Part shown: piece by piece, positions 1,860 to 62,438 of the stretch | How positions within the stretch are numbered: the first letter of the stretch is position 1 | How the letters are laid out: each line of letters begins with the position of its first letter | Origin: a virus | IMG/VR virus record: IMGVR_UViG_3300027749_000089 | Coordinates: 10,799 to 74,798 of that record | Length of the DNA stretch: 64,000 bases | Direction: 5' to 3' (one strand) | Notes under the pieces: model-generated | The model's input: only the letters and a program-made list of their open reading frames with translations | Told to the model about the DNA's origin: nothing | Database searches by the model: none | Program-made: the position numbers and the translations under genes

Positions 1860-1877
1860 CCCCGTTAAATTAACCCT
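1860..1877 (+). promoter_or_regulatory. motif class I (CCCCGTTAAATTAACCCT), putative phage RNAP promoter
   Basis: Exact 17-18 nt repeat found 7 times, always at gene boundaries and in the same orientation. Confidence 0.65.
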
Positions 1878-1999
1878 AATTTCAAAAAATAAAAAAGTTG
1901 AAGTTAGAAATCCCATCTCGTATTATTAATGGCAAAAGCGCACCATAATGGAACCGCACGATACATACTTTATATTAATTTATTATTAAGGAATTTATC

Positions 2000-2614
2000 A
2001 TGTCAGTTCAAATCCAACAAGCATTCGTAGTAAACGGTCAAACATTTGCAACTAAAGCAGAAGCATTAAACTTTGTTAGACGTCCATTGATTTTAGCAGC
2101 TATGTTAACAGCTGTAAGTAATCAAACAGACGTTGCAGAATGGTTAGTTGATAACCAAGACACAGTTGAATCTGCTTTCGAAAGTGGTACTATTCGTCGT
2201 GTGACTAAATCTGATTATAACAAATTGGAAAAAGCACTTGCAGAAATCACTTCAGGTTTCTTATTTGACAATGCAAAATCTGTCTTAGATTCGTTCAGAT
2301 GGCCTGCTGTAAAACGTTTAACTGCTGAAGAAAAAGTAGAAGCCGCTAAAACAGAAATCTTACAAGCATCAGGTAATCCTGAACTTGCTGATTATGTTGT
2401 TAGTAACTCTACTGCTATCTTGGAAGCTTATAGCGCTGGTGTTGAAAAACGCGAAGTGTCACCTAAAGCTGCTGCTGGTTTAGCAGAATACCAAGCTAAG
2501 AAACGTGCTGAAGAAGATGCAGAAGCTGAGTCTAAAGGCCCAGAAGCTGTAGCTGAATTGGCTGCAAAACGTGAAGCTAATCGTTTAAAACGTGAAGCAA
2601 AAGCTGGTAAGTAA
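2000..2614 (+). CDS. hypothetical protein, probably highly expressed
   Basis: AAGGA RBS, biased codon use (GCT/CGT/GAA), class I motif upstream and terminator downstream. Confidence 0.8.
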   Translation: MSVQIQQAFVVNGQTFATKAEALNFVRRPLILAAMLTAVSNQTDVAEWLVDNQDTVESAFESGTIRRVTKSDYNKLEKALAEITSGFLFDNAKSVLDSFRWPAVKRLTAEEKVEAAKTEILQASGNPELADYVVSNSTAILEAYSAGVEKREVSPKAAAGLAEYQAKKRAEEDAEAESKGPEAVAELAAKREANRLKREAKAGK

Positions 2615-2627
2615 TTTTTAACAAACA

Positions 2628-2656
2628 CCCCTTGACCTTAATGGTTGAGGGGTTTT
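2628..2656 (+). terminator. intrinsic terminator
   Basis: CCCCTTGACC-ttaat-GGTTGAGGGG followed by TTTT. Confidence 0.7.
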
Positions 2657-2679
2657 AATCAAAAACTGGAGATAAAGAA

Positions 2680-3357
2680 ATGATGAGATATTTAACAGCA
2701 TATACAAACAACAGCGTGCGTCTTCAAGTTGAAGATATTGCTCGTAAGGAATTTAAAACATTAGTACAAGTAGCGAATGAACTGATAATCCAGGGCATTG
2801 AACTAGTCACTATTCAAGACCTTATGGTAACATCTCGTGAAGCAACAATACGTGGTCAAATGCCATTAAAAACTTACATTGAATTAGTTGATAAAATACC
2901 TTTTGTTTCTTATAAACAAAAAGGAAAATGCAACGAGTATCTTGGCTTGGCAATAGAAAAAGCTTTAAAAGCACGCCCTAGAAATGCTATTGTAGATCTT
3001 GAATATAAAACTTTAAAATGTTCTCTTAACTCTCACATAGACCTGCTAAAGCTTTTATACCCTAATTGTAAAGTCGATGGGATGGAAGTTAAAGTTTCTA
3101 TTGGTAGTGATCAAGCATTCTTGCGTTTAAAAGAAATTATCTCTACTCAACCAGGTATTAAACTTAACACTGATCCTACATCTGGTACATTTAGTATTAT
3201 AAGTTCAGAAGGTAGGGTTGCTAAGTTTAGAAGAAATGATTATGAATTCTTATTAGAGATTAAAGAGGGGTCTATATTGATTCTAGCTGATAACATCTCT
3301 GAAAATGAGTTAATTGCATTAGGACGCGATGTGTTGGACTTTATTAATCGAGGTTAA
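2680..3357 (+). CDS. hypothetical protein
   Basis: 225-aa ORF with GGAG RBS. Confidence 0.7.
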   Translation: MMRYLTAYTNNSVRLQVEDIARKEFKTLVQVANELIIQGIELVTIQDLMVTSREATIRGQMPLKTYIELVDKIPFVSYKQKGKCNEYLGLAIEKALKARPRNAIVDLEYKTLKCSLNSHIDLLKLLYPNCKVDGMEVKVSIGSDQAFLRLKEIISTQPGIKLNTDPTSGTFSIISSEGRVAKFRRNDYEFLLEIKEGSILILADNISENELIALGRDVLDFINRG

Positions 3358-3359
3358 TT

Positions 3360-3713
3360 ATGAAAGAATTTGAAGTTTTGATTAAAGAAAGGTATTTTAT
3401 TTATAATGCTATTAATGGCACAATTACAAGGCATAATGGCGCTAATGCATGTCTTACACAAAGCGTTGGTAAAAATAGAGGTGTGCGCCATGTAGTTCGT
3501 GTACCAGGTTCTGCGAAAAAACAAACATCTGCAGCGCGTGTTGCGTGGAGATTGTATTACGGGGAATGGCCTAATGAGCCTATAGCGTTTAAAGACAAAG
3601 ACTCATTTAACATCAGAATCACTAACATGTATACTTTAAACAGCCCATTACCAATCATGGGCAAATTTTCAACACTACTAAATGGTATTTCAAATGAATC
3701 AAAAAGAAGCTAG
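3360..3713 (+). CDS. degenerate HNH endonuclease-like protein
   Basis: AARVAWRLYYGEWP...IAFKDKD..NIRITNM matches the HNH_3 pattern but lacks the DH histidine. Confidence 0.6.
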   Translation: MKEFEVLIKERYFIYNAINGTITRHNGANACLTQSVGKNRGVRHVVRVPGSAKKQTSAARVAWRLYYGEWPNEPIAFKDKDSFNIRITNMYTLNSPLPIMGKFSTLLNGISNESKRS

Positions 3714-4155
3714 AAAATTATTCGATTATGACGCGATAACAGGTTGTTTATATTGGAGAGATTCAAAATTTAAGCAAAGCCATAATGCTGTAAGATTCGA
3801 TCCTGATAGAAATCGAATCATTCAGGTAAACCATAGGATGTATGTTGCGGCACGACTTGTGTGGACATATCATCATGGCGATGAACTTACACAATTAGAT
3901 TATCTGGGCTATGTTGACAATAATAAACAAAACACTAGAATTGAAAATCTATATCTGAAAGATGGCACAAGCTTTAAAAGTGTTTATAGAAATATTAAAC
4001 CAACAGTATCAGCTGAGAGGGTTGTGTATGATGTCGCTATCAATCACAAAGGTAAAGTTATTTCAAAAAGATGTAGAACACTAACAGAGGCATTAGAGTA
4101 TAGAAATGCCCAACGAAGTGAACTTGGTATGAAATTTATTGGGATGGACGTATGA
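3694..4155 (+). CDS. degenerate HNH endonuclease-like protein with possible AP2-like C-terminus
   Basis: LFDYDAITGCLYW...AARLVWTYHHG...YVDNNKQNTRIENL...TLTEALEYRN. Confidence 0.6.
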   Translation: MNQKEARKLFDYDAITGCLYWRDSKFKQSHNAVRFDPDRNRIIQVNHRMYVAARLVWTYHHGDELTQLDYLGYVDNNKQNTRIENLYLKDGTSFKSVYRNIKPTVSAERVVYDVAINHKGKVISKRCRTLTEALEYRNAQRSELGMKFIGMDV

Positions 4156-5742: not shown

Positions 5743-5755
5743 ATTAACCTTTCCC

Positions 5756-5803
5756 CCTCCTACTGCCCTTCGGGGTGGTAGGAGGCCCCTTATTTTTTTT
5801 TTT
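5756..5803 (+). terminator. TTCG-loop terminator
   Basis: CCTCCTACTGCCC-TTCG-GGGTGGTAGGAGG then long T tract. Confidence 0.75.
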
Positions 5804-6001: not shown

Positions 6002-6007
6002 ACTTAA

Positions 6008-6025
6008 CCCCGTTAAATTAACCCT
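6008..6025 (+). promoter_or_regulatory. motif class I copy
   Basis: CCCCGTTAAATTAACCCT upstream of terminase. Confidence 0.65.
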
Positions 6026-6163
6026 AAAGCCGCTCCCCCTGAATTGTAATCCATTAGTTGTTAATCCTTAGTTATTAATTAATAATAATTAATCTAATAA
6101 ATATATCCTTTAGGGGATCCCTGACTTTTTCCTAAAGGGCAGAGCGCTGAGACATATAGAAAA

Positions 6164-6181
6164 CCCCGTTAAATTAACCCT
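6164..6181 (+). promoter_or_regulatory. motif class I copy
   Basis: CCCCGTTAAATTAACCCT about 90 nt before terS. Confidence 0.65.
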
Positions 6182-6269
6182 AAGATTAATAATAAATAAT
6201 TGTTAATTTTTAAAATAGAGGGCTACGGAGACGTAACTCATTGAATGCAAACTGAAATGTGAGTAAACT

Positions 6270-6707: not shown

Positions 6708-7125
6708 CATATGTGCTTATTTCATGTTAGCATTAACAATGATTGTAGCTATAGTTAAAAAGAAAGTTCCCCAAATGATTATTGATGTATTATTATTTAT
6801 ATCATTATGTAATATTTTAACGTTCCTAACAGGACTCTATTATGAGTGATTATCAACAATTATTATTTGTATTTAGTCAATTAACGTTAATGATGATTAC
6901 AATTTATTTCATTTGTAAAAACGAACAACTAGCATTTAAGGCCCTACTATGTCAGACAGCAGTAGCGATATTATTATTGATTTGGATTACATCATAATGT
7001 TTACTAATTTAATTATGTTTGCATCGTATGCTTTTTTAGAAACATCAACATGGGTTATTGTTGTATTGGTGTATTTAGGTATATGCGTTTTAAATGACCT
7101 CATTGACTTAGTATTATATGATTAG
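6676..7125 (+). CDS. three small overlapping hydrophobic ORFs (6676-6849, 6842-6997, 6997-7125)
   Basis: Manually translated; each 42-57 aa with hydrophobic stretches and coupled start/stop codons. Confidence 0.5.
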
Positions 7126-8443
7126 CCTTCATCCAGCACAATCTCAAATATATAAAGATTTATTTGTAGATCAAAAATTAAGATATGCTGTAGTATGTTG
7201 TGCTAGGGGTTGGGGTAAATCATATATGGCCGCTGTATGTGCAGTTACAGCTGTATTTGAATTACTCGAACTAGCAGCTAAGGTGCCTAATAAGACAGTG
7301 TACATCATTGCTCCTACTTATGATCAAGTAAAGGATATTTATTTTCCATTAATTAATTATGATTTAGGAATGGAAGATTATGCTTTAAAATCATCTCGTG
7401 ATCTAGGGCGTTTCTGGTTCGCTAATAATGTTGAATTAAGATTATTATCATATGAATCAGTAGAACGTATGCGTGGCAAGGGTTCTTATTTTGTCGTATG
7501 GGATGAGATATCATCATGTACCAAAGGTCTTGGTGCTGAAGATGCATGGATGTCTGTAATACAGCCTACTATTGCCACTAGATGGTCTAATAAAAGAGCA
7601 TTAAGTTATGGCGCTAGAAGTCCTGGACGTTCATTAGTTATTAGTACACCCAAAGGATATAATTTCTTTCATACACTATCTACATATCATGAATCAGACT
7701 CTGATTGGGGATTTTATCAATATGATTATTTACAATCGCCATTCTTAGATCAACAAGAAATAGAAAAGATTAAAGATAAGATTGACCCAGTAACATGGGC
7801 ATCAGAATACTTAGCACAATTTGCTGAATCAGGCAACAGTGTATTCTACTGTTTTGATCGTAAGAAACATGTTGATGCTACATTAGAAGACCTTATGGAA
7901 GGTGAAGATGTTCATATATGTATTGACTTTAACGTCATGCGTCAGTGTTCTAGTGTCTTCACACTTAGAGGGCATCAAATGCAATTTATTGATGAGTTCC
8001 AAGGGCATCCTGATACAGAATCACTGGCTATTGCTATTAAAGAAAAATATAAAGGCCATAAGATATATGCATATCCAGATCCTTCTGGTCGTGCTAGAAA
8101 GACTTCAGCTCCAATAGGTCGTACTGACTTTAGTATACTAGAGACATATGGCATTATATGTAGAGCGCACAGGGCTGCACCACCTATTATCGATAGTGTA
8201 GCTGCAGTAAATCGTAAACTATTAACAGCTTCAGGTAAAATAGACCTGTATGTACATCCTAGATGTTCCGGTACTATTTTATCTCTTGAAAGAACAAAAT
8301 GGACAGACCGCAACTTAGATATCGCGACTATTGATAAGTCCGAAAATATAGAGCATTTTTCTGATGGTATTAGATATGCCACAGAATATCTCTATCCAAT
8401 ACAAACGGGCGGGAAACGGGTTTCTCGTGGTTTCAACTTTTAA
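7118..8443 (+). CDS. terL: terminase large subunit
   Basis: LHPAQ Q-motif, Walker A (ARGWGKS), Walker B (VVWDE), ISTPKG coupling motif, RNase H-like nuclease (IDFN...DPSG...HFSDGIRY). Confidence 0.95.
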   Translation: MISLHPAQSQIYKDLFVDQKLRYAVVCCARGWGKSYMAAVCAVTAVFELLELAAKVPNKTVYIIAPTYDQVKDIYFPLINYDLGMEDYALKSSRDLGRFWFANNVELRLLSYESVERMRGKGSYFVVWDEISSCTKGLGAEDAWMSVIQPTIATRWSNKRALSYGARSPGRSLVISTPKGYNFFHTLSTYHESDSDWGFYQYDYLQSPFLDQQEIEKIKDKIDPVTWASEYLAQFAESGNSVFYCFDRKKHVDATLEDLMEGEDVHICIDFNVMRQCSSVFTLRGHQMQFIDEFQGHPDTESLAIAIKEKYKGHKIYAYPDPSGRARKTSAPIGRTDFSILETYGIICRAHRAAPPIIDSVAAVNRKLLTASGKIDLYVHPRCSGTILSLERTKWTDRNLDIATIDKSENIEHFSDGIRYATEYLYPIQTGGKRVSRGFNF

Positions 8444-44280: not shown

Positions 44281-44918
44281 TGATCTCATTCACCCCTAAT
44301 ATAACAAAAGCATTAAATAGTGATGCAATCGAGTTTTTCTCATTAGTGCGAATAGAAAGAACCGCAAATGAAGTAGACCCAATACCTATCAATTTATATG
44401 CAACTACTAGCCATTACAATGATATTCAATTATTAGTAAATGGAAGTCCTTCAAGTAAATATAACTATATTGCTGATGGTACATTATATGCAGTAGATCC
44501 TCCTCAAAACTCTTCAGTAGTTGACAGAGAGCAATATAAGATTGCATTTGCAGACCCTGACTTTTCAAAGCGAGGTGCAACAGAAGATAGCCTTATAGGT
44601 AGAGTTGTTGAGTGTAGATTAGGCTTTGTTGATTCAGACCCTAGTTCTCCTACTCACGGTAAACCTTTTTTAAATATAGACGACACTATTGTAGTGTACA
44701 GAGGAAGAGTAGATGGCGTCTCAGCTAGTATAAAGGTGGGAAGCTTAGGTGAAAGCATATTACAAATAACAGGCTCAAGCCCAATGCGTAATTTAGACAT
44801 GAAAAAGCCATTCTTCTTGAGCCGTGAAAAGACTAAACAAAGGGAACCTCTTGATACTTCATGCGATCAAATTTATGAAGGTTCTACCGGTATCATTGTC
44901 AAGTGGGGGAGAAAATAA
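44280..44918 (+). CDS. tail tip protein (gpL-like position)
   Basis: Synteny; YRGRVD, WGRK C-terminus. Confidence 0.6.
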   Translation: MISFTPNITKALNSDAIEFFSLVRIERTANEVDPIPINLYATTSHYNDIQLLVNGSPSSKYNYIADGTLYAVDPPQNSSVVDREQYKIAFADPDFSKRGATEDSLIGRVVECRLGFVDSDPSSPTHGKPFLNIDDTIVVYRGRVDGVSASIKVGSLGESILQITGSSPMRNLDMKKPFFLSREKTKQREPLDTSCDQIYEGSTGIIVKWGRK

Positions 44919-53107: not shown

Positions 53108-53110
53108 TTT

Positions 53111-53605
53111 ATGTACTATATTAAAGTTAATACTATTGGCAAAATTGAAGAAGCTATGATTTCTTCGTCCTCAGAAGTTTTAGTAACCGATGACTATACT
53201 TTAATTGAAGTCACGGAAGAAATGTTTAATGAAATACGTACTTCTTTACATTATTGGGATTCTCAATTTATAAAGGTTCCAATAGCTCCGGATGTTTACC
53301 ATGAGTTTGACTACGTGTTTAGAGAGTGGCGTCCAATGGACGATTATCTTTCAAGAGCTAGAGTGCAAAACAAAGAAGCTATAAATAGTTTAAGTAGTGA
53401 TATAATTATTAAAAGGTATCCAATATATCGTCAAATAAACTATAATAGAGCGCCAGCAGCGCAGAGTACGATAGACATGAATTCATGGATAGATGAAATA
53501 AGAGGAAGTAGTAATATTGCTAATACGTCTATAGACTTAGTTACTGATTTAACAACTATGGAAAATATTGTAAATGCGTTCCAAACTGAAGTAGCTAATT
53601 TATAA
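53111..53605 (+). CDS. putative fibre assembly protein
   Basis: Follows tail tip gene; P...HEFDY...W and I..RYP.YRQ.N motifs. Confidence 0.55.
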   Translation: MYYIKVNTIGKIEEAMISSSSEVLVTDDYTLIEVTEEMFNEIRTSLHYWDSQFIKVPIAPDVYHEFDYVFREWRPMDDYLSRARVQNKEAINSLSSDIIIKRYPIYRQINYNRAPAAQSTIDMNSWIDEIRGSSNIANTSIDLVTDLTTMENIVNAFQTEVANL

Positions 53606-53625
53606 TTACAACCAGAGAGTTTAAA

Positions 53626-53808
53626 ATGAAATATTTATTTGCGCGTTTAAAAGAGCCATCTACTTGGTTCGGTATTATATCTTCTACTTTAGCATCATTA
53701 AGTGCTTTTAAAGTAGTAGAACTATCACCAGAACAAATGGACGGTGTATTAGCGTTATCTGTTGCTATCTTAGGTGGTGGACATGTAACATCAAAGGATC
53801 CTGAATAA
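53626..53808 (+). CDS. putative holin
   Basis: 60 aa, two hydrophobic segments, RLKEPSTW N-terminus. Confidence 0.55.
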   Translation: MKYLFARLKEPSTWFGIISSTLASLSAFKVVELSPEQMDGVLALSVAILGGGHVTSKDPE

Positions 53809-53809
53809 T

Positions 53810-54478
53810 ATGGCGAAAAAACCTAGACGTACTCAAGAAAACATTATTGAACCTACTGGTGAAAAAGCTTTAGAGCTTTTAACAGATGCACAAAAACGAT
53901 ATTTAAATTCCATCAAAGCAAATATAATAACATTTGGTGTTGGAGTTGCTGGTACTGGAAAGTCATATGTAGCATTATCATATGCTGCACAATTACTACA
54001 AAGTAAACGAATATCAAAAATAATTGTGACAAGACCTGCAGTAGAAGCTGGTGAATCGTTTGGATTCTTACCTGGGGAGCTAGAGGAAAAATATGCTCCC
54101 TACATTGATCCAATAAAAGATATATTGAATAAAAGACTAGGTCATTCGTTTACAGACTACCTGTTTAAACGTAAAGTAATTGAAGCAAAGCCCTTGGCAT
54201 TTATCAGGGGTAGTACATTTGAGAATGCATTCATAGTATTAGATGAAGCTCAGAATTGTACGCCTGCTCAAATGAAAATGTTCTTAACACGTATTGGTGA
54301 AAATACCAAGGTTGTTATTGATGGTGATATACAACAAAAAGATATCAAAGGTAACTCAGGATTAGCTGATGCTATTATTAGGTTACAGGGTATTAATAAG
54401 GTTGGTATTGTTACCTTTGATGTGGATGATATCGTACGTAGTGGTATCTGTAAAGATATTGTGAAAGCTTACTTATAA
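53810..54478 (+). CDS. phoH: PhoH-like ATPase
   Basis: GVAGTGKS, TRPAVEAGE..GFLPG, RGSTF, LDEAQN, GD..Q.D, DIVRS. Confidence 0.95.
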   Translation: MAKKPRRTQENIIEPTGEKALELLTDAQKRYLNSIKANIITFGVGVAGTGKSYVALSYAAQLLQSKRISKIIVTRPAVEAGESFGFLPGELEEKYAPYIDPIKDILNKRLGHSFTDYLFKRKVIEAKPLAFIRGSTFENAFIVLDEAQNCTPAQMKMFLTRIGENTKVVIDGDIQQKDIKGNSGLADAIIRLQGINKVGIVTFDVDDIVRSGICKDIVKAYL

Positions 54479-54487
54479 AAGGAGATT

Positions 54488-54514
54488 GGCCCTGACTTCG
54501 GTTGGGGTCTTTTT
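54488..54514 (+). terminator. TTCG-loop terminator
   Basis: GGCCCTGAC-TTCG-GTTGGGGTC then TTTTT. Confidence 0.65.
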
Positions 54515-54518
54515 ATAT

Positions 54519-54977
54519 ATGATTATACGAAAAATTAAAAATAAAGATGAATTACATGATTGTGTTAAGATCTATATGAAATTTGCACAACCTGATTTAA
54601 TTAGAGCAGACTATGATACATCATTATCTTCAATGAGAAAGATAATAGGTGTGCGAGGATTCTTAAGAGTTGTAGAAGTAGATGGTGAGATAAGGGCATG
54701 GTTACTGGCTGATGTAAGACGTAATGAATGTATCAAGGATCCACTACTACAACAATGTTTCTTTGCTTCTGATTTAACAGGAACTAAAGCTGTTAGAGCT
54801 GTAGTATTACTTCATGAAGAATTAATTGAAGAAGCGAAGCGTAGAAATATTAACTGTATTATTTCAAACGGAAGCAATGTGGACGAGAAAAACGTGTTCA
54901 CCAGAATTCTAGAAAAACAGGGCTGGAGTCGGATCGGATACCTAGCTACGTGGCATTTGGACGAGCATCCTTTATGA
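54519..54977 (+). CDS. GNAT-fold-like protein
   Basis: MIIRK...LRVVEVDGEI...LIEEAKRRNI...ILEKQGW pattern. Confidence 0.5.
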   Translation: MIIRKIKNKDELHDCVKIYMKFAQPDLIRADYDTSLSSMRKIIGVRGFLRVVEVDGEIRAWLLADVRRNECIKDPLLQQCFFASDLTGTKAVRAVVLLHEELIEEAKRRNINCIISNGSNVDEKNVFTRILEKQGWSRIGYLATWHLDEHPL

Positions 54978-54979
54978 TG

Positions 54980-55200
54980 GTGATGCCAAAATTTTCCGCG
55001 TCAAGACGGGGCATTTCTGCACAAATTTTGGGTAGCGTGAAATCTGGGCGTGTGTGGGCACGCGGTGTGGGCGCATCACTGAGGGATCAGCGTGGCACCC
55101 GCGTGCCGTGTGGGGCAATTTCTGGCGGCAGAACGGGCACTCTCAGCGTGTGGCGTGTGGCAGTTTTCAGCACCGAACCCGTTAAATTAACCCTTCAGAC
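54980..55200. other. GC-rich non-coding island with GTGTGG repeats and an inverted repeat
   Basis: Five GTGTGG copies; GGCACGCGG (55057-55065) pairs with CCGCGTGCC (55099-55107). Confidence 0.6.
55178..55194 (+). promoter_or_regulatory. motif class I copy
   Basis: CCCGTTAAATTAACCCT, plus a partial AATTAACCCT at 55211-55220. Confidence 0.6.
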
Positions 55201-55253
55201 GTTCCCCCTCAATTAACCCTTTGGTCATTATCCATTAATTGTTAATTCCTAAT

Positions 55254-55278
55254 ACGGAAATAATGGTATCTTATATGA
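55254..55278 (+). promoter_or_regulatory. motif class II copy
   Basis: ACGGAAATAATGGTATCTTATATGA. Confidence 0.5.
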
Positions 55279-55454
55279 TAATCAATATAGATTATTATAA
55301 CCAAGGAGTATACTATGAAACATAATAAAGTAACACCTATCCAACAATTGGCATTAATTAATAATAAAAATGTTCCTTTTCCTTTCCGTAAAAAGAAAGA
55401 GAAAAATACGGAAGCTTTTGATACCTTTCTTAAGGCAGCATTGAAGGAGCAAAA

Positions 55455-55757
55455 ATGAAAAGTACAGTATTATTTTTGATTAACGCAAACTTAGATTGTG
55501 ATATTAGACGTCATGTCCCATGGGATTATGAAGATGTCGATGCGGAAGATTACAACGCTGTAATCCAAATGTGGGATACAGCCAGCACAAGAATTAGAAT
55601 TGGTGACAATCTGCAGTATACGTGGGATAGCCTCACGTGGGTTGGGCGGGATGTAGACTGTCTAGCTGCAATTTTAGATAGATTAAATGAAGAAGATTTT
55701 AAATTGTGTGTCCTCACAGAAGGGCATATCTACCAGCAAGGGTTGCTGGTACTTTAA
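55455..55757 (+). CDS. hypothetical protein
   Basis: AAGGAG RBS. Confidence 0.65.
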   Translation: MKSTVLFLINANLDCDIRRHVPWDYEDVDAEDYNAVIQMWDTASTRIRIGDNLQYTWDSLTWVGRDVDCLAAILDRLNEEDFKLCVLTEGHIYQQGLLVL

Positions 55758-55760
55758 CAT

Positions 55761-55787
55761 AGGGATGGTCTTCGGACTATCCCTTTT
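55761..55787 (+). terminator. TTCG-loop terminator
   Basis: AGGGATGGTC-TTCG-GACTATCCCT-TTT. Confidence 0.7.
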
Positions 55788-55791
55788 AAAC

Positions 55792-55816
55792 GCGGAAAAA
55801 GAGGTATCTTATATGA
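55792..55816 (+). promoter_or_regulatory. motif class II copy
   Basis: GCGGAAAAAGAGGTATCTTATATGA immediately after terminator. Confidence 0.5.
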
Positions 55817-55867
55817 AGTACAATAAGGTACCTCAACTAACTTTAATATTCCAAAAGGAAACTAACA

Positions 55868-56034
55868 TGTTTAACGAAATTATAAACTATTTTACAGCTG
55901 ACAGAAAAGTAATTGATGAAGCTAGAGATTTATTAGTGGAATTAAGAGCTGAACAAGAAGCTGCTGATGCTTTAATGGCAAAACTTGAAGCAAGAGTTTT
56001 AGTAATGAAAACAATCAATTGCAAACAATCGTAG
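55868..56034 (+). CDS. small coiled-coil protein
   Basis: AAGGA RBS before MFNEII; likely true start of the listed 55687 ORF. Confidence 0.55.
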
Positions 56035-56263
56035 TAGACTTAACATTAATCAGTAATTCAAGTAAAGTATATGAAGTACATCACAATTTAATTAATCCAA
56101 GAGGAATTTCAAATGAACGCAGTAGAACACGCGCAACAAATAGTAGATTTAAAATTAGCAGAAATGCAAAAAGAACACGAAGCAAGAATTGCTGAATTGA
56201 ACAAAGAATTTAATATTGAAGAGCGCTTAGCAGCTCTCCTTAACATTCCAAGAGGAAACTAAA

Positions 56264-56509
56264 ATGCCAACTATGTATTTTGATGTAAACAATTTTGAAA
56301 CTGAATTTAACAATGCAAAAGATCCATCTTTCTGGAGTGATTTCTTTGATGATATTGGTAATTCATTTAATTACTATGCAGATATGATTACACCTGAATT
56401 CTTTAAAAAGCCATGGACTCAAGCTGATGTAGATGCTTACAATGCAGCATTAATGTGGTTCTTGATTGGCTACTACGTTGCTTTATTCATAATATTAATG
56501 ATATTATGA
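56264..56509 (+). CDS. membrane protein with C-terminal TM
   Basis: GAGGA RBS; hydrophobic C-terminus. Confidence 0.65.
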   Translation: MPTMYFDVNNFETEFNNAKDPSFWSDFFDDIGNSFNYYADMITPEFFKKPWTQADVDAYNAALMWFLIGYYVALFIILMIL

Positions 56510-56994
56510 TAAATCTAAATAAAGAGTTTGAAAAAGATCAAGTTAAACACGAACAAAAGCGTAAGGAAGAACATACGGAAGAATACTTGCTTCTTGAGGA
56601 GTTGTATGATACTATTGCCTATGTATTTGGGCGAAAGTATACAATGATTCCTCAGCGCAATGGAATGTATAGATTGAAACTTGTAAAAGATATCGATCAA
56701 TTTAAAAAAGGTTCTCTAGGCGGGTTGGTTTCTAATGAGGATAATGTTTCGCATAGTGGTAATTGCTGGGTTACATTTGATGCTAAAGTTCTTGACGATG
56801 CAAAGATTAAAGATAATGTTCTAATTACAGATAAAGCAGTTGTTAGGCAACAATCACTAATAACAGATAATGTTATGGTTGGTGGCCAAATGGCGGTCGC
56901 AGGTAATACCTACCTTGGCGGTGAAGGTATATATTGCGCTAGTGAGATTCTTTTTAACTTTTGCGAGATTGTTGAAAATGAAAATTCAAATTGA
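56506..56994 (+). CDS. phage hexapeptide-repeat (LpxA-like) protein
   Basis: YRLK..KD....KG.LGG....E.N.S..GNCWV..DAKV...A.I. Confidence 0.7.
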   Translation: MINLNKEFEKDQVKHEQKRKEEHTEEYLLLEELYDTIAYVFGRKYTMIPQRNGMYRLKLVKDIDQFKKGSLGGLVSNEDNVSHSGNCWVTFDAKVLDDAKIKDNVLITDKAVVRQQSLITDNVMVGGQMAVAGNTYLGGEGIYCASEILFNFCEIVENENSN

Positions 56995-57268
56995 AGCGTT
57001 ATACGTGTTAAATGAAAAAGCTTATTATGCAAAAACAGAGTCTAATCATTTAACAATAGATCCGACATTATATGTAAGAACGGTAAAAGTTCATGAGCTA
57101 CATGAATTAGCAGTAATGGAAACTTCAGTCTATTCTGAAGATTTTATCGATATGCAAGAATATGTACCAATAGCTTGTCTTAATGGGTCTCTCATCCCCT
57201 TTTTAATAGAAAAAGAAAAATCAAAAACTCTACAACGACTAATAGTTGAGCATAAAAGAAATAATTAG
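56978..57268 (+). CDS. hypothetical protein
   Basis: ORF ending before hairpins. Confidence 0.5.
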   Translation: MKIQIEALYVLNEKAYYAKTESNHLTIDPTLYVRTVKVHELHELAVMETSVYSEDFIDMQEYVPIACLNGSLIPFLIEKEKSKTLQRLIVEHKRNN

Positions 57269-57345
57269 TGCTTCGGCACTAGTATTGTAGGTACTCCCCT
57301 CTATCACCCTTCGGGGTGGTGGAGGGTTAACCTCTTTATTTTTTT
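57266..57345 (+). terminator. double TTCG hairpin / terminator upstream of RNAP2
   Basis: TAGTGC-TTCG-GCACTA and CCCTCTATCACCC-TTCG-GGGTGGTGGAGGG then T tract. Confidence 0.65.
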
Positions 57346-57476
57346 CTTCTAAATGAATAAATTATTATTACAATACGTAATTATTTTAGGCTCTACTAGT
57401 TTAATATTTGGTGTAAGTGCGGGAAATTCTTTTCTCTCATTTATTTTATTTCTATATTTGGTAAAAATTAAATGAC

Positions 57477-59696
57477 ATGCGAAATAGATTAAAGCAATCT
57501 TTAACACGTAGAATGCAGTTAGAAATTGCACCACAAAGTCCACTCAAATTTTTAAAAGAAATAGATGTAGAAAATATATTAGATATAATAATATCTAACG
57601 TATACTTATACACTCGTCCAAAGAGAGGTGCTATAAATAAACAAATACTAATGGTTGAAGTGATCAGTATTATTGGGCATTCGGTAAGACGCGGCTTAAA
57701 GAAAGACTCTTCTATTGCAGCTAAGACCGGTGCATTCATATTATATTCATTTGAAGAACTTGGAATGCTTAGGGCAATACTTGGTTCTGCTGGAAATGGA
57801 CATGCAACATATGTTGTAGAAGTTTTAGATGATGCAACAATACAATTACTATGGGAAGGTGTAAGCAGAGAAGGTGCCAAAGGTAAATTACCTTCAATAA
57901 CACCATATGAACCTTATACAGAGTTCAAACACCCTACTGGACAAGTATTAGTCAAGACGGGTAATAAAGATGTTCCAACAAAATTAACACCTGCAACACA
58001 TCCTATAGTATTTGATTCAGTAAATAAAAGCTTAAATACGGGTTGGCAAATAAACAAAGAAGTTTATAATGTTTCTAAATGGGCATTGAATAACCATACT
58101 GATGCATTTAGTGATATATGGGAGCAGCAAAATCCTCAAGCTAAGACTACTAAATTAAGGGAAACAAAAGCTATTCTATCTATAGCAGATAAGTTCATGG
58201 ATACTGTATTTTACCATATGTATTACCTTGATTTCCGTGGAAGGAAATATCCAACAACGGCATATCTCCATGAACAATCTAGTGATATTGCTAAAGGTCT
58301 TTTAATGCGTCAAGATAAGAAAGTAATTGGCGAAGAAGGTTTCTTTTGGCTATGTGTATCTATCTCCAGTAACTGGGCAGGTTCATCAGGACGTGAAGAT
58401 GGTGCAAAGACAGATAAGATTAATCTCAAAGACCGATATCAATGGGTATTAGATAACCAAGAGATCTTATTATCATATGCAGAAAGTCCAAAAGTAAATC
58501 AAGGATGGATGTCAGGAGATAAGCCATGGCAATTCTTAAGTGCATGTATTGAATTAAGAAATGCTTTAAAATTGGGACCAAGATATTTAGAGTATGAGTC
58601 ACATGTTGAATGTTTTATTGACGGATCAACGAACGGCTCACAACATTTATCTGCATTAACAAGAGATGAAATAACAGCTCCATATGTTAATTTAATTCCA
58701 TTAGAACTTCCAGGTGATTTATATGCATATGTTGCCGAACATGTATGGAATAAAATATCTAATGACATAGCAAGAATGCCAGCGGATTTAATCTTTCAAT
58801 GTGAAGATTTTATAGATGGCTTAATTAAATTAAAGAAAAAGATTACTGCATCCGAACCTAAGTCTGAAATTAGGAATCAACTAGTAGCTCAAATTAAAGC
58901 CTATAAACAACAATGGGCGGATATTGGCTCTGTTGCAGCACCTGTATTTTGGAATCGTATAAAAGATTTGAAACAAAGAAGGAAGATAGTTAAAAGAAAC
59001 ACTATGACTCTTCCCTATGGAGGTAGCAGTTATGGATTGGGAGAGCAACAAATCCTTGATGCAAAAAAGCATGGAATAGACTTGCTACTTCATATGGAGC
59101 ATAAATGGGGAGCTTGGCTGGGCAGATTAGTATTTGAAGATTGTAAAGCTTCATTAGAGAAGCCGATGAGACTGTTAAATATATTTGAGAATGCCGGAAG
59201 AAACTGTGAGAAAATTGAAGAATTTTTATCATGGAATGTTCCAATAGTAAACTTTCCTGTAGTACAAAATTATACAGAAGGTAAAGTTAAAAAGATTTAT
59301 GTACAGTATGGGCCACCAGTTGGGTCACGTAAATCTACAGGTTATTATGAAAACACTTTTCAATTAGCAATATGTTTTATTGAAGATGTGGTTCCTAGTA
59401 AAGGTAAACAGTCTCAAGGAGCAGCACCTAACGTTATTCATAGTTTAGATGCAGCGCACTTAGCACTTACTACACACCGTTGTGATTTTACAATTACAAC
59501 AATTCATGACAGCTATGGTTGTTTATTTGCTGACATGCCAAATCTCTTTAGAATAGTTCGCGAGACATTTGTAGAACTTTATAAAGATAATCCATTGTTT
59601 CCAATAATGGATGATATTGACGGAGATCTTACTTATCTTGAGATGGGTGATCTTGATATTAATTTAATTCTAGAAAGCGAATACGCTTTCGCATAG
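57477..59696 (+). CDS. T7-like single-subunit DNA-directed RNA polymerase (stand-alone, short N-terminus)
   Basis: DFRGRKYP, Q.SDIAKGLL, KPWQFL, motif A DGSTNGSQH, motif B RKIVKRNTMTLPYG, PNVIHSLDA, motif C IHDSYG. Confidence 0.95.
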   Translation: MRNRLKQSLTRRMQLEIAPQSPLKFLKEIDVENILDIIISNVYLYTRPKRGAINKQILMVEVISIIGHSVRRGLKKDSSIAAKTGAFILYSFEELGMLRAILGSAGNGHATYVVEVLDDATIQLLWEGVSREGAKGKLPSITPYEPYTEFKHPTGQVLVKTGNKDVPTKLTPATHPIVFDSVNKSLNTGWQINKEVYNVSKWALNNHTDAFSDIWEQQNPQAKTTKLRETKAILSIADKFMDTVFYHMYYLDFRGRKYPTTAYLHEQSSDIAKGLLMRQDKKVIGEEGFFWLCVSISSNWAGSSGREDGAKTDKINLKDRYQWVLDNQEILLSYAESPKVNQGWMSGDKPWQFLSACIELRNALKLGPRYLEYESHVECFIDGSTNGSQHLSALTRDEITAPYVNLIPLELPGDLYAYVAEHVWNKISNDIARMPADLIFQCEDFIDGLIKLKKKITASEPKSEIRNQLVAQIKAYKQQWADIGSVAAPVFWNRIKDLKQRRKIVKRNTMTLPYGGSSYGLGEQQILDAKKHGIDLLLHMEHKWGAWLGRLVFEDCKASLEKPMRLLNIFENAGRNCEKIEEFLSWNVPIVNFPVVQNYTEGKVKKIYVQYGPPVGSRKSTGYYENTFQLAICFIEDVVPSKGKQSQGAAPNVIHSLDAAHLALTTHRCDFTITTIHDSYGCLFADMPNLFRIVRETFVELYKDNPLFPIMDDIDGDLTYLEMGDLDINLILESEYAFA

Positions 59697-59704
59697 GAGT
59701 TTAT

Positions 59705-59989
59705 ATGACACAGCCACAAAGATTTACAATACATGAATACGCAGAATTGACTGGAACAACACCTAATACTGTCCGTACACATATCGTAAGAAGTCAAGCA
59801 GATCCAGTAGATGCTATACGTAATAGAAACGGTAGCATAACTTATGTTTATAGCGGTATTGATTTAAAGGCATGTATGCACAACTCAAGAAAGAAAGAGA
59901 GAGAAGTCATTGAGATCACAAATCCAATGTGCAAATTTCTTGCTAATCCGATAATGCCTGTTGGCAAATGGTATGGATTTGCGATATGA
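59705..59989 (+). CDS. putative HTH DNA-binding protein
   Basis: FTIHEYAELTGTTPNTVRTHI. Confidence 0.6.
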   Translation: MTQPQRFTIHEYAELTGTTPNTVRTHIVRSQADPVDAIRNRNGSITYVYSGIDLKACMHNSRKKEREVIEITNPMCKFLANPIMPVGKWYGFAI

Positions 59990-60188
59990 GCAACGTAACA
60001 ATGATTAAACGGTCTGATAAGAAGAACCATAATAGAGTATTGAAAATAGCTGAGAATTGTAAAGAAGATTACAAAGCTTTAGAAGATGCTTTAAACGATG
60101 ATTGGTTTCTAACAGATGTAATATGTGTTGTAGGAACACCTGGCTACCACAGTGCAGCCACAGTATTTATTTTGTATAAGGATTAATT

Positions 60189-60503
60189 ATGATGCGTGAT
60201 TTAATTATTGATGAAATCCTTGGTTCAAAATGGTACCAAGATCTTTCACGCAATGAAAAAGATAAGCTTGACGTACAGAGATTGAGTTATAAAGGTCTCT
60301 TGGAAGCTCTTAAAAAATCTTTAGACCCTACTAGTAGGGCTTTTTAGTTAAGGAAAGTTATGCGTGATGAAATGATTGATCAAATTCTGGGTTCAAAATG
60401 GTACCAAGATCTTGCAGACAATAAAAAGTTAGACTTTAACTTATATATATTAAGTCATAAAGATCTCTTGGAAGCTTATAAAAAGTCTTTACCTAATTGT
60501 TAA
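60189..60503 (+). CDS. tandem duplicated small genes (60189-60347, 60360-60503)
   Basis: Both encode MRD..ID.ILGSKWYQDL...LS.K.LLEA.KKSL. Confidence 0.7.
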
Positions 60504-60542
60504 TTTTAAAAGCCTGAGTATGCTTTAACTGCTCAAAACAAA

Positions 60543-60929
60543 ATGGAGGAAAGTATGTTAACATCAATAGGTTGTCTCGTAGCTGTAATGTATTTCGAGG
60601 CAAGAAACCAACCAGTTGATACGATGTTAGGTGTAGGTCAAGTATTGATTGAACACGCACAGCCAGGGGAGAATCTATGTCACGTTATTAAACGCGATCC
60701 GGGTTTATTTACATGGGCACGACATGGTATGAAAACACCTAACCCTAAGCGTAAAGCCGACAGAAATGTGTTGGATAAGCAATATGAATTGGCGCGAAAA
60801 ATGTTATTCAGAAATCTCAGAACTACTAAACTAACAGAAGGCTATACGCATTTTAATAATGTGCCTTTAGGCAAGCGCTTCAGAACAAATGTTAAAATGG
60901 TAAAAATTGGCGATTTATTATTTTTCTAA
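60543..60929 (+). CDS. SleB-like cell wall hydrolase (Hydrolase_2)
   Basis: CL...MYFEARNQ......V..V; C.V......F.W; KIG...F. Confidence 0.75.
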   Translation: MEESMLTSIGCLVAVMYFEARNQPVDTMLGVGQVLIEHAQPGENLCHVIKRDPGLFTWARHGMKTPNPKRKADRNVLDKQYELARKMLFRNLRTTKLTEGYTHFNNVPLGKRFRTNVKMVKIGDLLFF

Positions 60930-61492
60930 GGAGAACCAAATGGATAATATTCTGAGTACGATTAACTATGTTTTAAATTTAGAGATAGACGCATTTGAGG
61001 AATACGTCTGTGACCAGTGGAATGATGAAACATTCACACCACGAAATAAACATATGCTTGATAGAGCATTAATAGATAGTAATATTGATCATATGTATAA
61101 GACAGCTTACTTAGCTGGAGAAGAATATGTTACATTAGTAGCATTTGAGAATAAAGTCAGGAGTCTGACTTTGAATCAACAACAACAATCGGCAATGTGG
61201 AAATAATTATGTTTAAAGATATTTGGCAAGCTATGTTTTCATTAGCAGTAGTAATACCATTATTTGTATTGCTATTCATTCTTTATATTCCTCTTAGAAT
61301 CTTTGGAATTGATATATTAAAAATTATAGAGGTAAAAATAGATGATGTCTTACGGTGATATAGCACTATGGTGCTCATTACTTTTTGTAATGTATAAGAA
61401 TCTTCATTGGTATAAGGTTGCTCGTACACAATCTGAACTAAATGAAAAACTTCAAGATAAGATTGCTGAACTTGAAACGATTATAATTATTC

Positions 61493-61699
61493 ATGGAATC
61501 AAAAATGAGAGTAAGCACTAGAGCTGTAATGATTAGATTAGGTATCAACCAGATGCAACTAGGTATGGCATTGTACTCAGGACGATTACCTAATCATGGA
61601 GCAGATGCCACATGGGATAAAGAATCCATTGAACCATATTTGGTTAATTGGGAAAGACAACTTAAAGCTAAAGAAAGAACAGGTATAAGAAATGATTAG
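61493..61699 (+). CDS. small putative DNA-binding protein
   Basis: STRAVMIRLGI...SGRLP....W. Confidence 0.45.
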   Translation: MESKMRVSTRAVMIRLGINQMQLGMALYSGRLPNHGADATWDKESIEPYLVNWERQLKAKERTGIRND

Positions 61700-61859
61700 T
61701 CAATTATTAGAAGCTGTAAGCTGTAAAGTTTTAGAAAACATGGTAGTAGAGTTATTGCACCAAGGTTGGATGCCACTGGGCGGAGTTGCAGCATGCGCAC
61801 CTCCCGATGTTACTCCACTTTATGTTCAAGCTATGGTACGGGATAATGTTAGTGCTTAA
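61692..61859 (+). CDS. DUF1737-like small protein
   Basis: Manually translated: V.ELL.QGW.PLGGV...Y.QAMV. Confidence 0.55.
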   Translation: MISQLLEAVSCKVLENMVVELLHQGWMPLGGVAACAPPDVTPLYVQAMVRDNVSA

Positions 61860-61991
61860 AGAAGAAGTAATTGAAGTACTTAGCTTACTTAAGCTATTAA
61901 GAGCAATGCTAGGTGAAGGCAAAAGTGGATACGAGGATTCTGTAGCAACAGTTGATCGTTATATTAATTTATTTTCAGAATGGTTAAAAGC

Positions 61992-62390
61992 ATGATTACA
62001 TTTAGACAAAACTCAGACGTACGTAATTTCTTTTATGGAAAAGAAGATCATCCACATTGGGAGCCACTGTGGCAACACTTTTCAAACATCTTAAGAAATA
62101 CACATGATGCTGCAGGTTACATTCATGAATTTGGCGGTGATCTTCATATTCTAGAATCTTTTGGAGATTTCTTGCATGTAACATTTATGGGCATGGATGA
62201 TAATGGTGTATTTAGAGAAACTAATCTTGCGTTAGATCCTGGCTCATTTGATATTGCTCGAAAAATCAAAGATTCTGACTGGTATGAGTTTCATTTCATC
62301 ACTACAAATGCAGGCGGTCCAGTTTGGTTCATTCCAGAAGAGCTTGCTAAAGTAAATGAAAACGTGCAAGAATCAGTAAATATTTCCTAA
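61992..62390 (+). CDS. hypothetical protein
   Basis: ORF; ends before class I motif. Confidence 0.6.
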   Translation: MITFRQNSDVRNFFYGKEDHPHWEPLWQHFSNILRNTHDAAGYIHEFGGDLHILESFGDFLHVTFMGMDDNGVFRETNLALDPGSFDIARKIKDSDWYEFHFITTNAGGPVWFIPEELAKVNENVQESVNIS

Positions 62391-62420
62391 TAAATGTGGG
62401 TCTCTATAAATGCTTAGAGA

Positions 62421-62438
62421 CCCCGTTAAATTAACCCT
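62421..62438 (+). promoter_or_regulatory. motif class I copy before replication genes
   Basis: CCCCGTTAAATTAACCCT, overlapped by hairpin GGGTCTCT...AGAGACCC. Confidence 0.65.

Follow-up and report, generated by a model that had tools for sequence, protein, structure and literature searches.

The T7 promoter is built of a binding part (−17 to −5) and an initiation part (−4 to +6) (PMC4496689). CCTCACTAA is common to all 14 T3 promoters annotated, 13 of which have ACCCTCACTAA; phi3.8 has ACACTCACTAA instead. The T3 record has phiOL ahead of the early promoters at the left end, phi2.5 ahead of the SSB gene (gp2.5) and phi9/phi10 ahead of scaffold and capsid. Phage N4 uses a relay in which the virion RNA polymerase (RNAP) gp50 is followed by RNAPII (gp15/16) and finally by the host RNAP, and its virion promoter is an inverted repeat that forms a stem of 5–7 bp with a 3-nt loop, the GC-rich heptamer having its centre at −11 (PMC4496689). 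The closest cultured relatives of the phage analysed here are the roseophages DSS3_VP1 and DSS3_PM1 (Naomviridae), whose RNAPs and promoters are not discussed in the paper describing them (PMC8323127). Identity to these relatives is 52% for TerL, 48% for the primase-helicase, 41% for the portal, 40% for the major head protein, 37% for DNA polymerase, 35% for the RNAP and 28% for the MuF-RNAP.

The source of the DNA is an uncultured freshwater long-tailed phage of 75 kb. The window, i.e. the whole stretch of 64,000 nucleotides that was analysed, covers positions 10799–74798 of its 74,798-bp genome. All genes of the phage lie on the + strand, and two of them encode RNAPs:

57477–59696, + strand: stand-alone T7-like RNA polymerase, 739 aa (Pfam RNA_pol 9.5e-65; phrog_414 3.3e-111; PDB T7 RNAP 3.7e-44)
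23219–27856, + strand: 1545-aa fusion of a MuF (SPP1 gp7-like) head protein with a divergent RNAP domain (phrog_241 2.3e-62; phrog_414 2.2e-22)

Catalytic motifs A and C are present in both proteins. Judged from its sequence, the stand-alone enzyme belongs to the canonical T7-like RNAPs and provides the genome with the cognate polymerase expected for a T7-type promoter. Unlike the T7/T3 enzymes, to which it is only ~27% identical, it is shorter by ~145 N-terminal residues, and its AT-rich recognition loop cannot be aligned with that of T7 RNAP. A PDB search with the MuF-fused RNAP domain gave no sequence match to any solved structure.

A pattern search of the window found seven exact copies of CCCGTTAAATTAACCCT (class I), spanning 1861–1877, 6009–6025, 6165–6181, 28200–28216, 28314–28330, 55178–55194 and 62422–62438. 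All are on the + strand and none was found on the − strand, which bears out an earlier note on this DNA that had reported seven exact + strand copies; six of its seven coordinates were one too low and one was right. The genome-wide scan suggested in that note covered the entire 74,798 bp and returned these seven copies and no more. A single half-copy with three mismatches was found at 55204. With up to three mismatches the chance expectation is 0.13, and eight matches were reached in none of 100 shuffles. The full unit reads A[C/A]CCCGTTAAATTAACCCT followed by ~3 A/T-rich bases (19–21 bases). The copies and the features next to them are as follows:

1859–1879, + strand: class I copy 1 (ACCCCGTTAAATTAACCCTAA), 122 nt 5′ of the ATG at 2000 (204-aa gene)
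2628–2652, + strand: terminator-like hairpin with TTTT, just 3′ of the 204-aa gene
5756–5785, + strand: strong terminator-like hairpin with T-run, ~220 nt 5′ of class I copy 2
6007–6027, + strand: class I copy 2, first of a tandem pair ahead of the terminase block, with a C-run tail behind
6026–6052, + strand: tail of class I copy 2, AAAGCCGCTCCCCCT, then a TATAAT-like stretch
6050–6105, + strand: AT-rich spacer (86% A+T) inside the terminase pair
6163–6183, + strand: class I copy 3, 88 nt 5′ of the ATG at 6270, first gene of the terminase block
28198–28218, + strand: class I copy 4, first of a tandem pair ahead of scaffold/capsid, overlapping the stop codon of a 73-aa gene (27991–28212)
28217–28241, + strand: tail of class I copy 4, TAAGCGGTCCCCCCT, then TTAAT
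28240–28305, + strand: AT-rich spacer (89% A+T) inside the capsid pair
28312–28332, + strand: class I copy 5, 78 nt 5′ of the scaffold ATG at 28409
55176–55196, + strand: class I copy 6, a variant (AACCCG...) opening the early region, immediately 3′ of a GC-rich island
55195–55220, + strand: tail of class I copy 6, TCAGACGTTCCCCCT, then CAATTAACCCT (the 3-mismatch half-copy)
62398–62423, + strand: stable hairpin GGGTCTCTA-N8-TAGAGACCC (−8.8 kcal/mol, z −5.5), closing the upstream block, its 3′ arm adjoining class I copy 7
62420–62440, + strand: class I copy 7, 28 nt 5′ of the ATG at 62467 (gp2.5-like SSB)

Every copy lies at a gene-block boundary, 28–122 nt 5′ of the next good start codon or else ahead of a second copy, and is co-oriented with the genes. 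With 7/7 copies on the + strand at such boundaries, class I forms the near-identical repeated block of ~17–23 bp that is typical of T7-type promoters. The gene behind copy 1 is unnamed; the terminase block contains the large subunit (7118–8443), and the scaffold gene is accompanied by that of the major head protein (29070). Small early-type ORFs and then the RNAP gene follow the copy at 55178, and the SSB gene is followed by a nucleotide kinase and then DNA polymerase. These gene calls agree with the codon-biased gene, terminase, scaffold/capsid, early region and SSB/DNA polymerase named in the earlier note. Compared with ORFs of at least 40 aa, four copies are outside all of them, one overlaps the 73-aa gene by its last 13 nt only, stop codon included, and two are covered by doubtful short ORFs only; by a crude estimate, 6.6% of the genome is non-coding.

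In IMG/VR the exact 17-mer was found in more than 116 stretches. Related IMG/VR phages provided 112 unique contexts, in which the flanks held less than 0.3 bit, giving a block with sharp edges at ~20 bp; exceptions were an A at −2 (111/112), a C or A at −1 and, on the 3′ side, three A/T-rich positions. Invariance of the 17-mer in this set is due to ascertainment, as the 17-mer was the search pattern, and the independent check is a scan allowing mismatches. In that scan (21-mer, ≤3 mismatches) the core was unchanged at 30 of 31 sites in five complete relatives, the single exception having one change at the last core base (CCCC for CCCT). Each of the five has 5–7 copies in one orientation, spaced in a way that matches the block order of the source phage, and strandedness is strict at all 38 sites of the six genomes. 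The stand-alone RNAP is encoded by all 23 motif-bearing genomes tested (57–98% identity), and class I stands at matching positions even where this enzyme is only 57–73% identical. Complete motif-bearing genomes also encode the MuF-RNAP fusion. Both RNAPs occur in 14/14 near-complete relatives, and their specificity-loop regions are conserved to about the same degree, so that the enzyme cannot be assigned from co-occurrence or from loop conservation. Distant relatives have variants within the 3′ CCT, not within ACCCCGTTAAATTAAC, and CCCT-GAAAGGG is the reading in many relatives. Analysis for a bipartite build showed a cluster of variants in the 3′ CCT, A/T-richness at three positions behind the motif and no purine-only position 3′ of it in the 112 contexts. 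By their sequence, the CCT variants and CCCT-GAAAGGG would be compatible with binding by a 5′ part and with melting and initiation at the 3′ part behind it. Class I appears to be a new sequence for an expected kind of element, and it is identical to the letter throughout a large family of environmental phages.

A second motif, GGTATCTTATATGA (class II), is found at other positions:

55265–55278, + strand: class II copy 1, in the early region, 5′ of the RNAP gene
55803–55816, + strand: class II copy 2, directly 3′ of a terminator-like hairpin
1228–1241, + strand: class II-like copy 3 (GATATCTTATATGA), one mismatch

In the source phage and four relatives (G004, G012, G019 and G002), class II is located within 1.5–4 kb 5′ of the stand-alone RNAP gene. 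In the same five genomes class I is located just 3′ of this gene and just 3′ of the MuF-RNAP gene, and it precedes the SSB, terminase and capsid blocks. DSS3_VP1 repeats the two-class layout with motifs of its own. There, ATAGG[GT][TG][GA]CGTTAAAG[AC]GGGG occurs 13 times on the + strand, including some tandem pairs ~90 nt apart; the early region is free of it, save one degenerate intragenic copy, and it resumes right behind the RNAP gene. Two class II-like copies, GGCATCTATAATGA, stand where the early region starts. The DSS3_VP1 motif shares CGTTAAA with class I, but the putative promoter sequence as a whole, ATAGGGTGCGTTAAAGAGGGG, differs. Additionally, DSS3_VP1 differs in having dU-DNA and Dcd/Dtm genes, homologues of which were looked for in the source phage and not found.

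Class I very probably is a phage promoter, as the earlier note had proposed: position, co-orientation, the sharp ~20-bp block, the matching sites of relatives and the DSS3_VP1 analogue all fit this reading. Its use as a middle/late promoter by the stand-alone RNAP, the enzyme also favoured in that note, is probable and is supported by the logic of the wiring, class II lying 5′ and class I 3′ of the RNAP gene in five genomes and in DSS3_VP1. We infer that class I acts as a double-stranded T7-type promoter for the stand-alone single-subunit RNAP in a middle and late programme, with transcription starting ~3–5 nt past its final T. The copy at 62422 would then serve the block of SSB, kinase, DNA polymerase and replication genes, the copy at 1861 the strongly expressed gene of 204 aa together with its neighbours, the pair at 6009/6165 the terminase-to-portal-to-MuF-RNAP block and the pair at 28200/28314 the scaffold-capsid-tail block. 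The copy heading the early region (55178) would correspond to phiOL in T7/T3. Early genes, including that of the stand-alone RNAP, would be transcribed from class II, the likely reader being the MuF-RNAP fusion supplied by the capsid.

This arrangement resembles the class II/III promoters of the T7 group (T7, T3, SP6) in that a near-identical, co-oriented block of ~20 bp stands ahead of SSB, replication, scaffold/capsid and packaging genes, with a cognate T7-like RNAP gene 5′ of most copies. One copy is near the presumed genome start, as is phiOL, and the tandem copies beside an AT-rich tract recall phi1.05 and the origin of T3; the annotated T3 layout follows the same logic. In contrast to the T7 group, the class I block seems to end ~3–5 nt before the start, whereas conservation in the T7 group reaches +6, and it has no conserved GGGAGA. 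The source is moreover no autographivirus: it is long-tailed, has a genome of 75 kb and carries a second RNAP linked to the capsid. The sequences are unrelated except for the 10-mer AATTAACCCT, which occupies −17 to −8 of the T3 promoters phi10, phi13, phi6.5 and phi4.3. The identity of the motif core with the upstream part of the T3 promoter, put forward in the earlier note, is true for this 10-mer, but it is out of register and uninformative on specificity, because the CACTAA(A/C)G that is invariant in T3 is absent and the conservation of class I extends upstream instead. This resemblance is probably chance. We also considered a T3 promoter proper (ACCCTCACTAA(A/C)(G/A)GGAG core, start 8 nt after CCCT); CCTCACTAA was present in 0/7 class I copies, and the bases past CCCT are unconserved.

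With N4 the source phage shares two T7-family RNAPs, one of them virion-linked, and, as proposed here, separate early and later promoter classes. Unlike in N4, the later enzyme is a single full-length polypeptide and appears to serve also the virion genes, which in N4 are left to the host RNAP, and the virion enzyme is a fusion to the MuF head protein rather than a 3,500-aa giant. A hairpin promoter of the N4 type was rejected: single-stranded class I DNA has folding energies of −0.1 to −2.4 kcal/mol, not lower than those of shuffled sequences, and the only possible stem has four A-T-rich pairs.

That class I is read by the MuF-RNAP from the capsid, or by both phage enzymes, is unlikely. The copy at 55178 heads the early region 5′ of the stand-alone RNAP gene, both enzymes accompany class I in every complete relative with similar conservation, and a one-strand gene order with transcription-coupled DNA entry could allow one enzyme to read the promoters sequentially. 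However, six of the seven copies are ahead of replication or virion blocks, and bulk late transcription is hardly expected from few capsid-borne molecules, an argument also made for N4 (PMC4496689). Only class II, 5′ of the RNAP gene itself, would remain for the stand-alone enzyme, so that nothing would switch this enzyme on; class I lacks the type of hairpin needed by the virion enzyme of N4; and the 55178 copy is missing in some close relatives, where the RNAP is 92–98% identical. A promoter for the host multisubunit RNAP would agree with the A/T-rich centre and the location 5′ of genes, but we regard it as barely credible. Class I contains no −35/−10 pair, no consensus match overlaps it, and the 17-mer is invariant over motif-bearing phages of 36 to 47% G+C with very different flanks, unlike host promoters. 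Furthermore, 596 Gb of bacterial genomes yielded only 20 single copies, a number not above chance, and a part of the contigs are mis-binned phage. A search for sigma-70 promoters (−35/−10 hexamers 16–18 bp apart) likewise gave no consensus match on any class I copy, and such sites were not enriched regionally (47 vs 40.6 expected and 34 vs 45.4 expected).

The earlier note had offered as an alternative an operator for a dimeric protein at the palindrome GTTAA-A-TTAAC (GTTAAATTAAC); in such a reading a dimeric phage regulator bound there would gate each gene block. The perfect 11-nt dyad is real and placement at block boundaries is also typical of operators, yet this function is very improbable. 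The dyad covers 11 of ~21 conserved positions, its flanks are asymmetric (ACCC on the left, CCT, or CCTAA in the conserved block, on the right), and the block is one-stranded at 38/38 sites in six genomes; an operator would also leave the gene blocks without a visible promoter, sigma-70-like sites not being enriched. In view of the asymmetric flanks, the DSS3_VP1 counterpart, which has CGTTAAA but no dyad, and the variants of relatives (GTTgAATTAAC, GTTAtATTAAC, GTTAgATTAAC), which alter one side of the dyad with no matching change on the other, the palindrome is most likely a coincidence. Slightly less improbable, though still doubtful, is that class I is mainly an inter-operon signal for RNA processing or termination, or part of a replication origin. 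An origin would suit the two pairs flanking AT-rich spacers of 86–89% A+T, and the primary origin in the T3 record is an AT-rich stretch (77% A+T) directly behind phi1.05; against this, the single copies ahead of the SSB and 204-aa genes have no such spacer, and an origin role would add to promoter activity, as in T7 and T3, rather than supplant it. For processing or termination, class I lacks a stable RNA or DNA structure and a U-run, and an Rfam search found no family matching it. Contigs 98–99% identical to the phage in freshwater metatranscriptomes have a per-contig depth of 6–15 up to 62443 and of 144–257 from 62577, a roughly 17-fold step in assembled RNA contigs that are blind to transcript starts. 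This step at 62422 is a weak hint in favour of a class I promoter, and a processing site could also yield it.

The copy at 55178, being 5′ of the stand-alone RNAP gene, would be superfluous for a pure middle/late promoter, though it is absent in close relatives. Three class I copies bear a conserved C-run/TATAAT-like tail, the role of which falls outside the account given by the promoter model; among relatives its consensus is a C-run, a T and then TATTATAAT.

A pattern search of the window located seven exact copies of the class I motif, the 17-mer CCCGTTAAATTAACCCT, all on the + strand and starting at positions 1861, 6009, 6165, 28200, 28314, 55178 and 62422. A half-copy with three mismatches lies at 55204 (+ strand), and no copy was found on the - strand of the window. 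Even with up to three mismatches allowed, only 0.13 matches are expected in shuffled sequence. The virus record is a circularly assembled genome of 74,798 bp, of which the window represents bases 10799-74798; the remaining 10.8 kb contained no further copy. This genome-wide scan confirmed the number, strand and exactness of the copies reported in the earlier note, where six of seven coordinates are too low by one base. In a k-mer census (12-16-mers), CCCGTTAAATTAACCCT was by far the most repeated string of the genome.

Alignment of the seven copies showed that the match is confined to the motif, with no consistent similarity in the 60 bp on each side. Scanning IMG/VR with the exact 17-mer yielded at least 116 stretches. 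In 112 unique contexts among the matches listed, whose flanks range from very A/T-rich to very G+C-rich, flank conservation was below 0.3 bit per position, except for A at position -2 (111/112), C or A at position -1 and three A/T-rich positions 3' of the motif. Because conservation of the flanks is limited to these positions, the class I unit is A[C/A]CCCGTTAAATTAACCCT[A/T]A[A/T], approximately 20 bp with sharp edges. Invariance of the 17-mer in this context set is by construction, as it was the search pattern, and five complete relatives (74-81 kb) were therefore rescanned with a 21-mer, allowing three mismatches at most. In each of them, 5-7 class I sites were present in a single orientation. 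For 30 of the 31 sites all mismatches fell outside the 17-mer; the remaining site has one substitution in the 17-mer, at the final base (CCCC instead of CCCT). Relatives with an RNAP 57-61% identical carry rare variants at the 3' end (CCCa, CCtag, tCtact) or at single central bases, with ACCCCGTTAAATTAAC unchanged. The G+C content was 39-47% in the four relatives examined in full compared with 36% here. The 17-mer is found letter-perfect across RNAP drift to 57% identity and a genome G+C content from 36 to 47%, which makes it a handy marker to find and orient such genomes in metagenomes.

All credible genes of the genome are located on the + strand, including the following:

7118-8443, + strand, terminase large subunit
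21321-22904, + strand, portal protein
23219-27856, + strand, MuF-RNAP, 1,545 aa, MuF/SPP1-gp7-like head protein fused to a divergent RNAP domain (phrog_241, 2.3e-62; phrog_414, 2.2e-22)
28409-29047, + strand, scaffold protein
29070-30308, + strand, major head protein
33536-43648, + strand, tape measure protein, 3,370 aa (Pfam TMP_3, 1.2e-52), including an SLT lytic transglycosylase domain
57477-59696, + strand, stand-alone RNAP, 739 aa (Pfam RNA_pol, 9.5e-65; T7 RNAP in PDB, 3.7e-44)
62467-62958, + strand, T7 gp2.5-like SSB
+ strand, nucleotide kinase and DNA polymerase

Both RNAPs retain the catalytic aspartates in motifs A and C; MuF-RNAP gave no PDB match by sequence. No PHROG match was obtained for the 2,734-aa protein at 44903-53107, and a megablast search of GenBank phages with the first 25 kb returned no match. 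The spacing of class I sites in the relatives follows the order seen here, namely SSB block, 204-aa gene, terminase pair and capsid pair. Relatives G004 and G005 share the copy that opens the early region, whereas G001 and G003 lack it. The stop codon of a 73-aa gene (27991-28212) lies inside the fourth class I copy, and this gene has only PHROG matches of unknown function (phrog_872, 2.6e-14; phrog_1048, 1.9e-13).

A second motif, class II (GGTATCTTATATGA), occurs at three positions:

1228-1241, + strand, class II with one mismatch
55265-55278, + strand, class II
55803-55816, + strand, class II

In this genome and in relatives G002, G004, G012 and G019, class II always falls within the 1.5-4 kb that precede the stand-alone RNAP gene, and class I just downstream of this gene, before SSB, as well as between the MuF-RNAP gene, which it directly follows, and the scaffold and capsid genes. 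No polymerase can first transcribe its own gene. Moreover, a few capsid-borne RNAP molecules are ill suited to supplying late transcripts in bulk, an argument made for N4 (PMC4496689). On these two grounds, we infer from the layout, as the economical assignment, that class II, as a candidate early promoter, would be read by MuF-RNAP injected from the capsid and class I by the stand-alone RNAP. The earlier proposal that class I is a promoter of a phage RNAP, most plausibly of the stand-alone enzyme, fits this two-class layout, and it is from the layout that the enzyme is deduced. A homologue of the stand-alone RNAP was found in all 23 motif-bearing genomes tested (57-98% identity, some split by inserts) and MuF-RNAP in all 14 that were at least 90% complete (64-97% identity over the RNAP part). 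As both enzymes occur in all 14 near-complete relatives, their co-occurrence is uninformative on the reader of class I. The same applies to conservation of the specificity-loop region, which, aligned with T7 and T3 RNAP, showed similar, moderate variation in both enzyme sets; in this alignment the motif B region of MuF-RNAP did not align to T7.

Class II often has CGGAAA-N4-5 in front, and it contains an ATG, so that leaderless or very short-leader mRNAs are possible. Interruptions of both RNAP genes were seen in many relatives (G003, G006, G007, G009, G011, G017, G022 and G023, loci L128-L149; G001, G002, G005, G015 and G018, loci L159-L179). The break in the stand-alone gene is often at residue 514/515, and that in the MuF-RNAP gene near residue 1106/1108 of the whole protein. 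These recurring breaks, together with an HNH endonuclease gene that EBPR siphovirus 1 carries at this position, suggest introns or inteins with homing endonucleases.

Three class I copies are followed by a tail of 6-11 G+C-rich bases, 4-7 C, T and a TATTATAAT-like box:

6026-6052, + strand, tail behind the copy at 6009
28217-28241, + strand, tail behind the copy at 28200
55195-55220, + strand, tail behind the copy at 55178

Such a tail was also present in 32 of 101 contexts from relatives among the matches listed. At 6009 and 28200 it is followed by 56-66 bp of 86-89% A+T and then a second class I copy, and at 55178 by class II. A composite site could be a third promoter class, a polymerase handover point or a transcription-primed origin like those of T7 and T3. 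We regard it as rather improbable that the three sites are more than doubled promoters, namely transcription-primed origins or places of polymerase handover, where class I would serve the two phage RNAPs alike and the C-run/TATAAT box would form a third promoter class.

The copy before SSB ends closest to a start codon, at 28 nt, and GAGAG stands 8-12 nt ahead of that ATG; the matching distance in relatives is 28-42 nt. Transcription should therefore start no more than about 12 bases from the motif. A G follows the three A/T-rich positions in three local copies (AAAG, TAAG, TCAG), many distant relatives read CCCT-GAAAGGG, and no purine-only position was detected 3' of class I. By analogy with the T7 promoter, in which -17 to -5 serve binding and -4 to +6 initiation (PMC4496689), we predict a start 3-5 nt 3' of the last T of the motif.

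Parts of 55000-63000 were represented in three freshwater metatranscriptome runs of one study as assembled contigs, which cannot show starts. The RNA contigs, 98-99% identical to the phage, had a depth of 6-15 up to 62443 and of 144-257 from 62577 on, an approximately 17-fold step in per-contig depth across the class I copy at 62422. This step fits a strong promoter there but is a weak hint, since contigs cannot reveal starts and the contig break at 62443 coincides with a strain-variant branch. Several contig joints at the motif likewise resemble strain variants or assembly links. Over 44001-64000, RNA contigs gave no cover at 46.7-53.3 kb except for a trace (run X2, depth 0.68, 48670-50003), possibly because strains diverge in this tail region.

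Among cultured phages, the nearest relatives are the Naomviridae roseophages DSS3_VP1 and DSS3_PM1, with identities of 52% for TerL, 41% for portal, 40% for major head protein, 35% for RNAP and 28% for MuF-RNAP. The main motif of DSS3_VP1, ATAGG[GT][TG][GA]CGTTAAAG[AC]GGGG, has 13 + strand copies, including tandem pairs about 90 nt apart. It is missing from the early region save for one degenerate copy inside a gene at 38541 and resumes approximately 1.3 kb after the RNAP gene. A class II-like sequence, GGCATCTATAATGA, occurs twice (35808-35821 and 36255-36268), within a repeat of 43 nt where the early region begins. DSS3_VP1 (L117) hence displays the class I/class II pattern with different letters. 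The dCTP deaminase (Dcd) and dTMP phosphatase (Dtm) of DSS3_VP1 have no homologue in the present genome by tblastn, with core genes 31-52% identical, so that nothing suggests the dU-for-dT DNA of Naomviridae here. The partial EBPR siphovirus 1 has a MuF-RNAP 58% identical, and the 45 kb examined contained neither a class I copy nor a strong repeat.

Rival readings of class I were also considered. The palindrome within the motif had led to the suggestion of an operator for a dimeric protein. Its dyad spans only 11 of about 21 conserved positions with asymmetric flanks, class I orientation is strict, variants in relatives break one dyad half only, and the DSS3_VP1 counterpart retains CGTTAAA but no dyad, all of which makes an operator unlikely. 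An N4-type hairpin promoter was rejected, as the motif in single-stranded DNA gives folding energies of -0.1 to -2.4 kcal/mol, no better than those of shuffled sequence; the sole real hairpin nearby closes the block upstream of the seventh copy, and Rfam families had no match anywhere in the window. Host promoters were dismissed likewise: sigma-70-like sites show no enrichment, and no class I copy overlaps one. With regard to a bacterial repeat, the 17-mer occurs only 20 times, in single copies, in 596 Gb of bacterial and archaeal genomes, about chance level. At least one of these matches is a phage contig binned into a MAG, and they give no host call.

Identity to the T3 promoter, also raised in the earlier note, holds for the 10-mer AATTAACCCT, which in the annotated T3 record corresponds to -17 to -8 of phi10, phi13, phi6.5 and phi4.3, but not for the register, and the invariant T3 core is absent. 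T3 promoters keep ACCCTCACTAA(A/C)G invariant but differ from one another in the 5' AATT, whereas the class I block closes with the shared 10-mer at its 3' end, conservation is strongest upstream of the 10-mer and nothing like CACTAAAG follows. After comparison with annotated T3 promoters, a T3 register was rejected for class I; if GAAA-GGG in distant relatives marks the start, the registers differ by 3 nt. The stand-alone RNAP is approximately 27% identical to T7/T3 RNAP, and we take the shared 10-mer to reflect chance or mild convergence.

Phage single-subunit RNAP promoters are a familiar kind of signal, and class I is a real element that adds a new sequence to it, noteworthy for its extreme conservation, tidy two-class layout and composite sites. 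A literature search did not find the motif string in any paper. The Naomviridae description (PMC8323127) contains no RNAP or promoter analysis, and we found no published description of promoters of this two-polymerase clade. Class I provides a concrete promoter candidate for an uncharacterised, widespread clade of freshwater and marine long-tailed phages, which express their genes by means of two phage-encoded polymerases. The motif and its presumed RNAP form a candidate orthogonal pair for transcription in vitro, and together with class II the motif bears on the handover from capsid-borne to free polymerase.

The arrangement of sites resembles that of T3, where phiOL lies ahead of the early host promoters, phi1.05 is followed by the AT-rich primary origin (77% A+T), phi2.5 precedes the gp2.5 SSB and phi9/phi10 precede scaffold and capsid; all of these have counterparts in this genome. 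A GC-rich island with GTGTGG repeats (54980-55200) ends exactly at the sixth class I copy. It is possibly a genome end or packaging site, in which case this copy would occupy the place of T7/T3 phiOL. The scaffold/capsid leader (28345-28400) contains a hairpin with the conserved loop ATTGTAT, followed by a conserved GAGTTGT. Its stem shows compensating changes among relatives (tgaATTGTATtca, cggATTGTATccg, cagATTGTATctg, tatagATTGTATctata), and the hairpin is a possible RNA regulatory or processing element.
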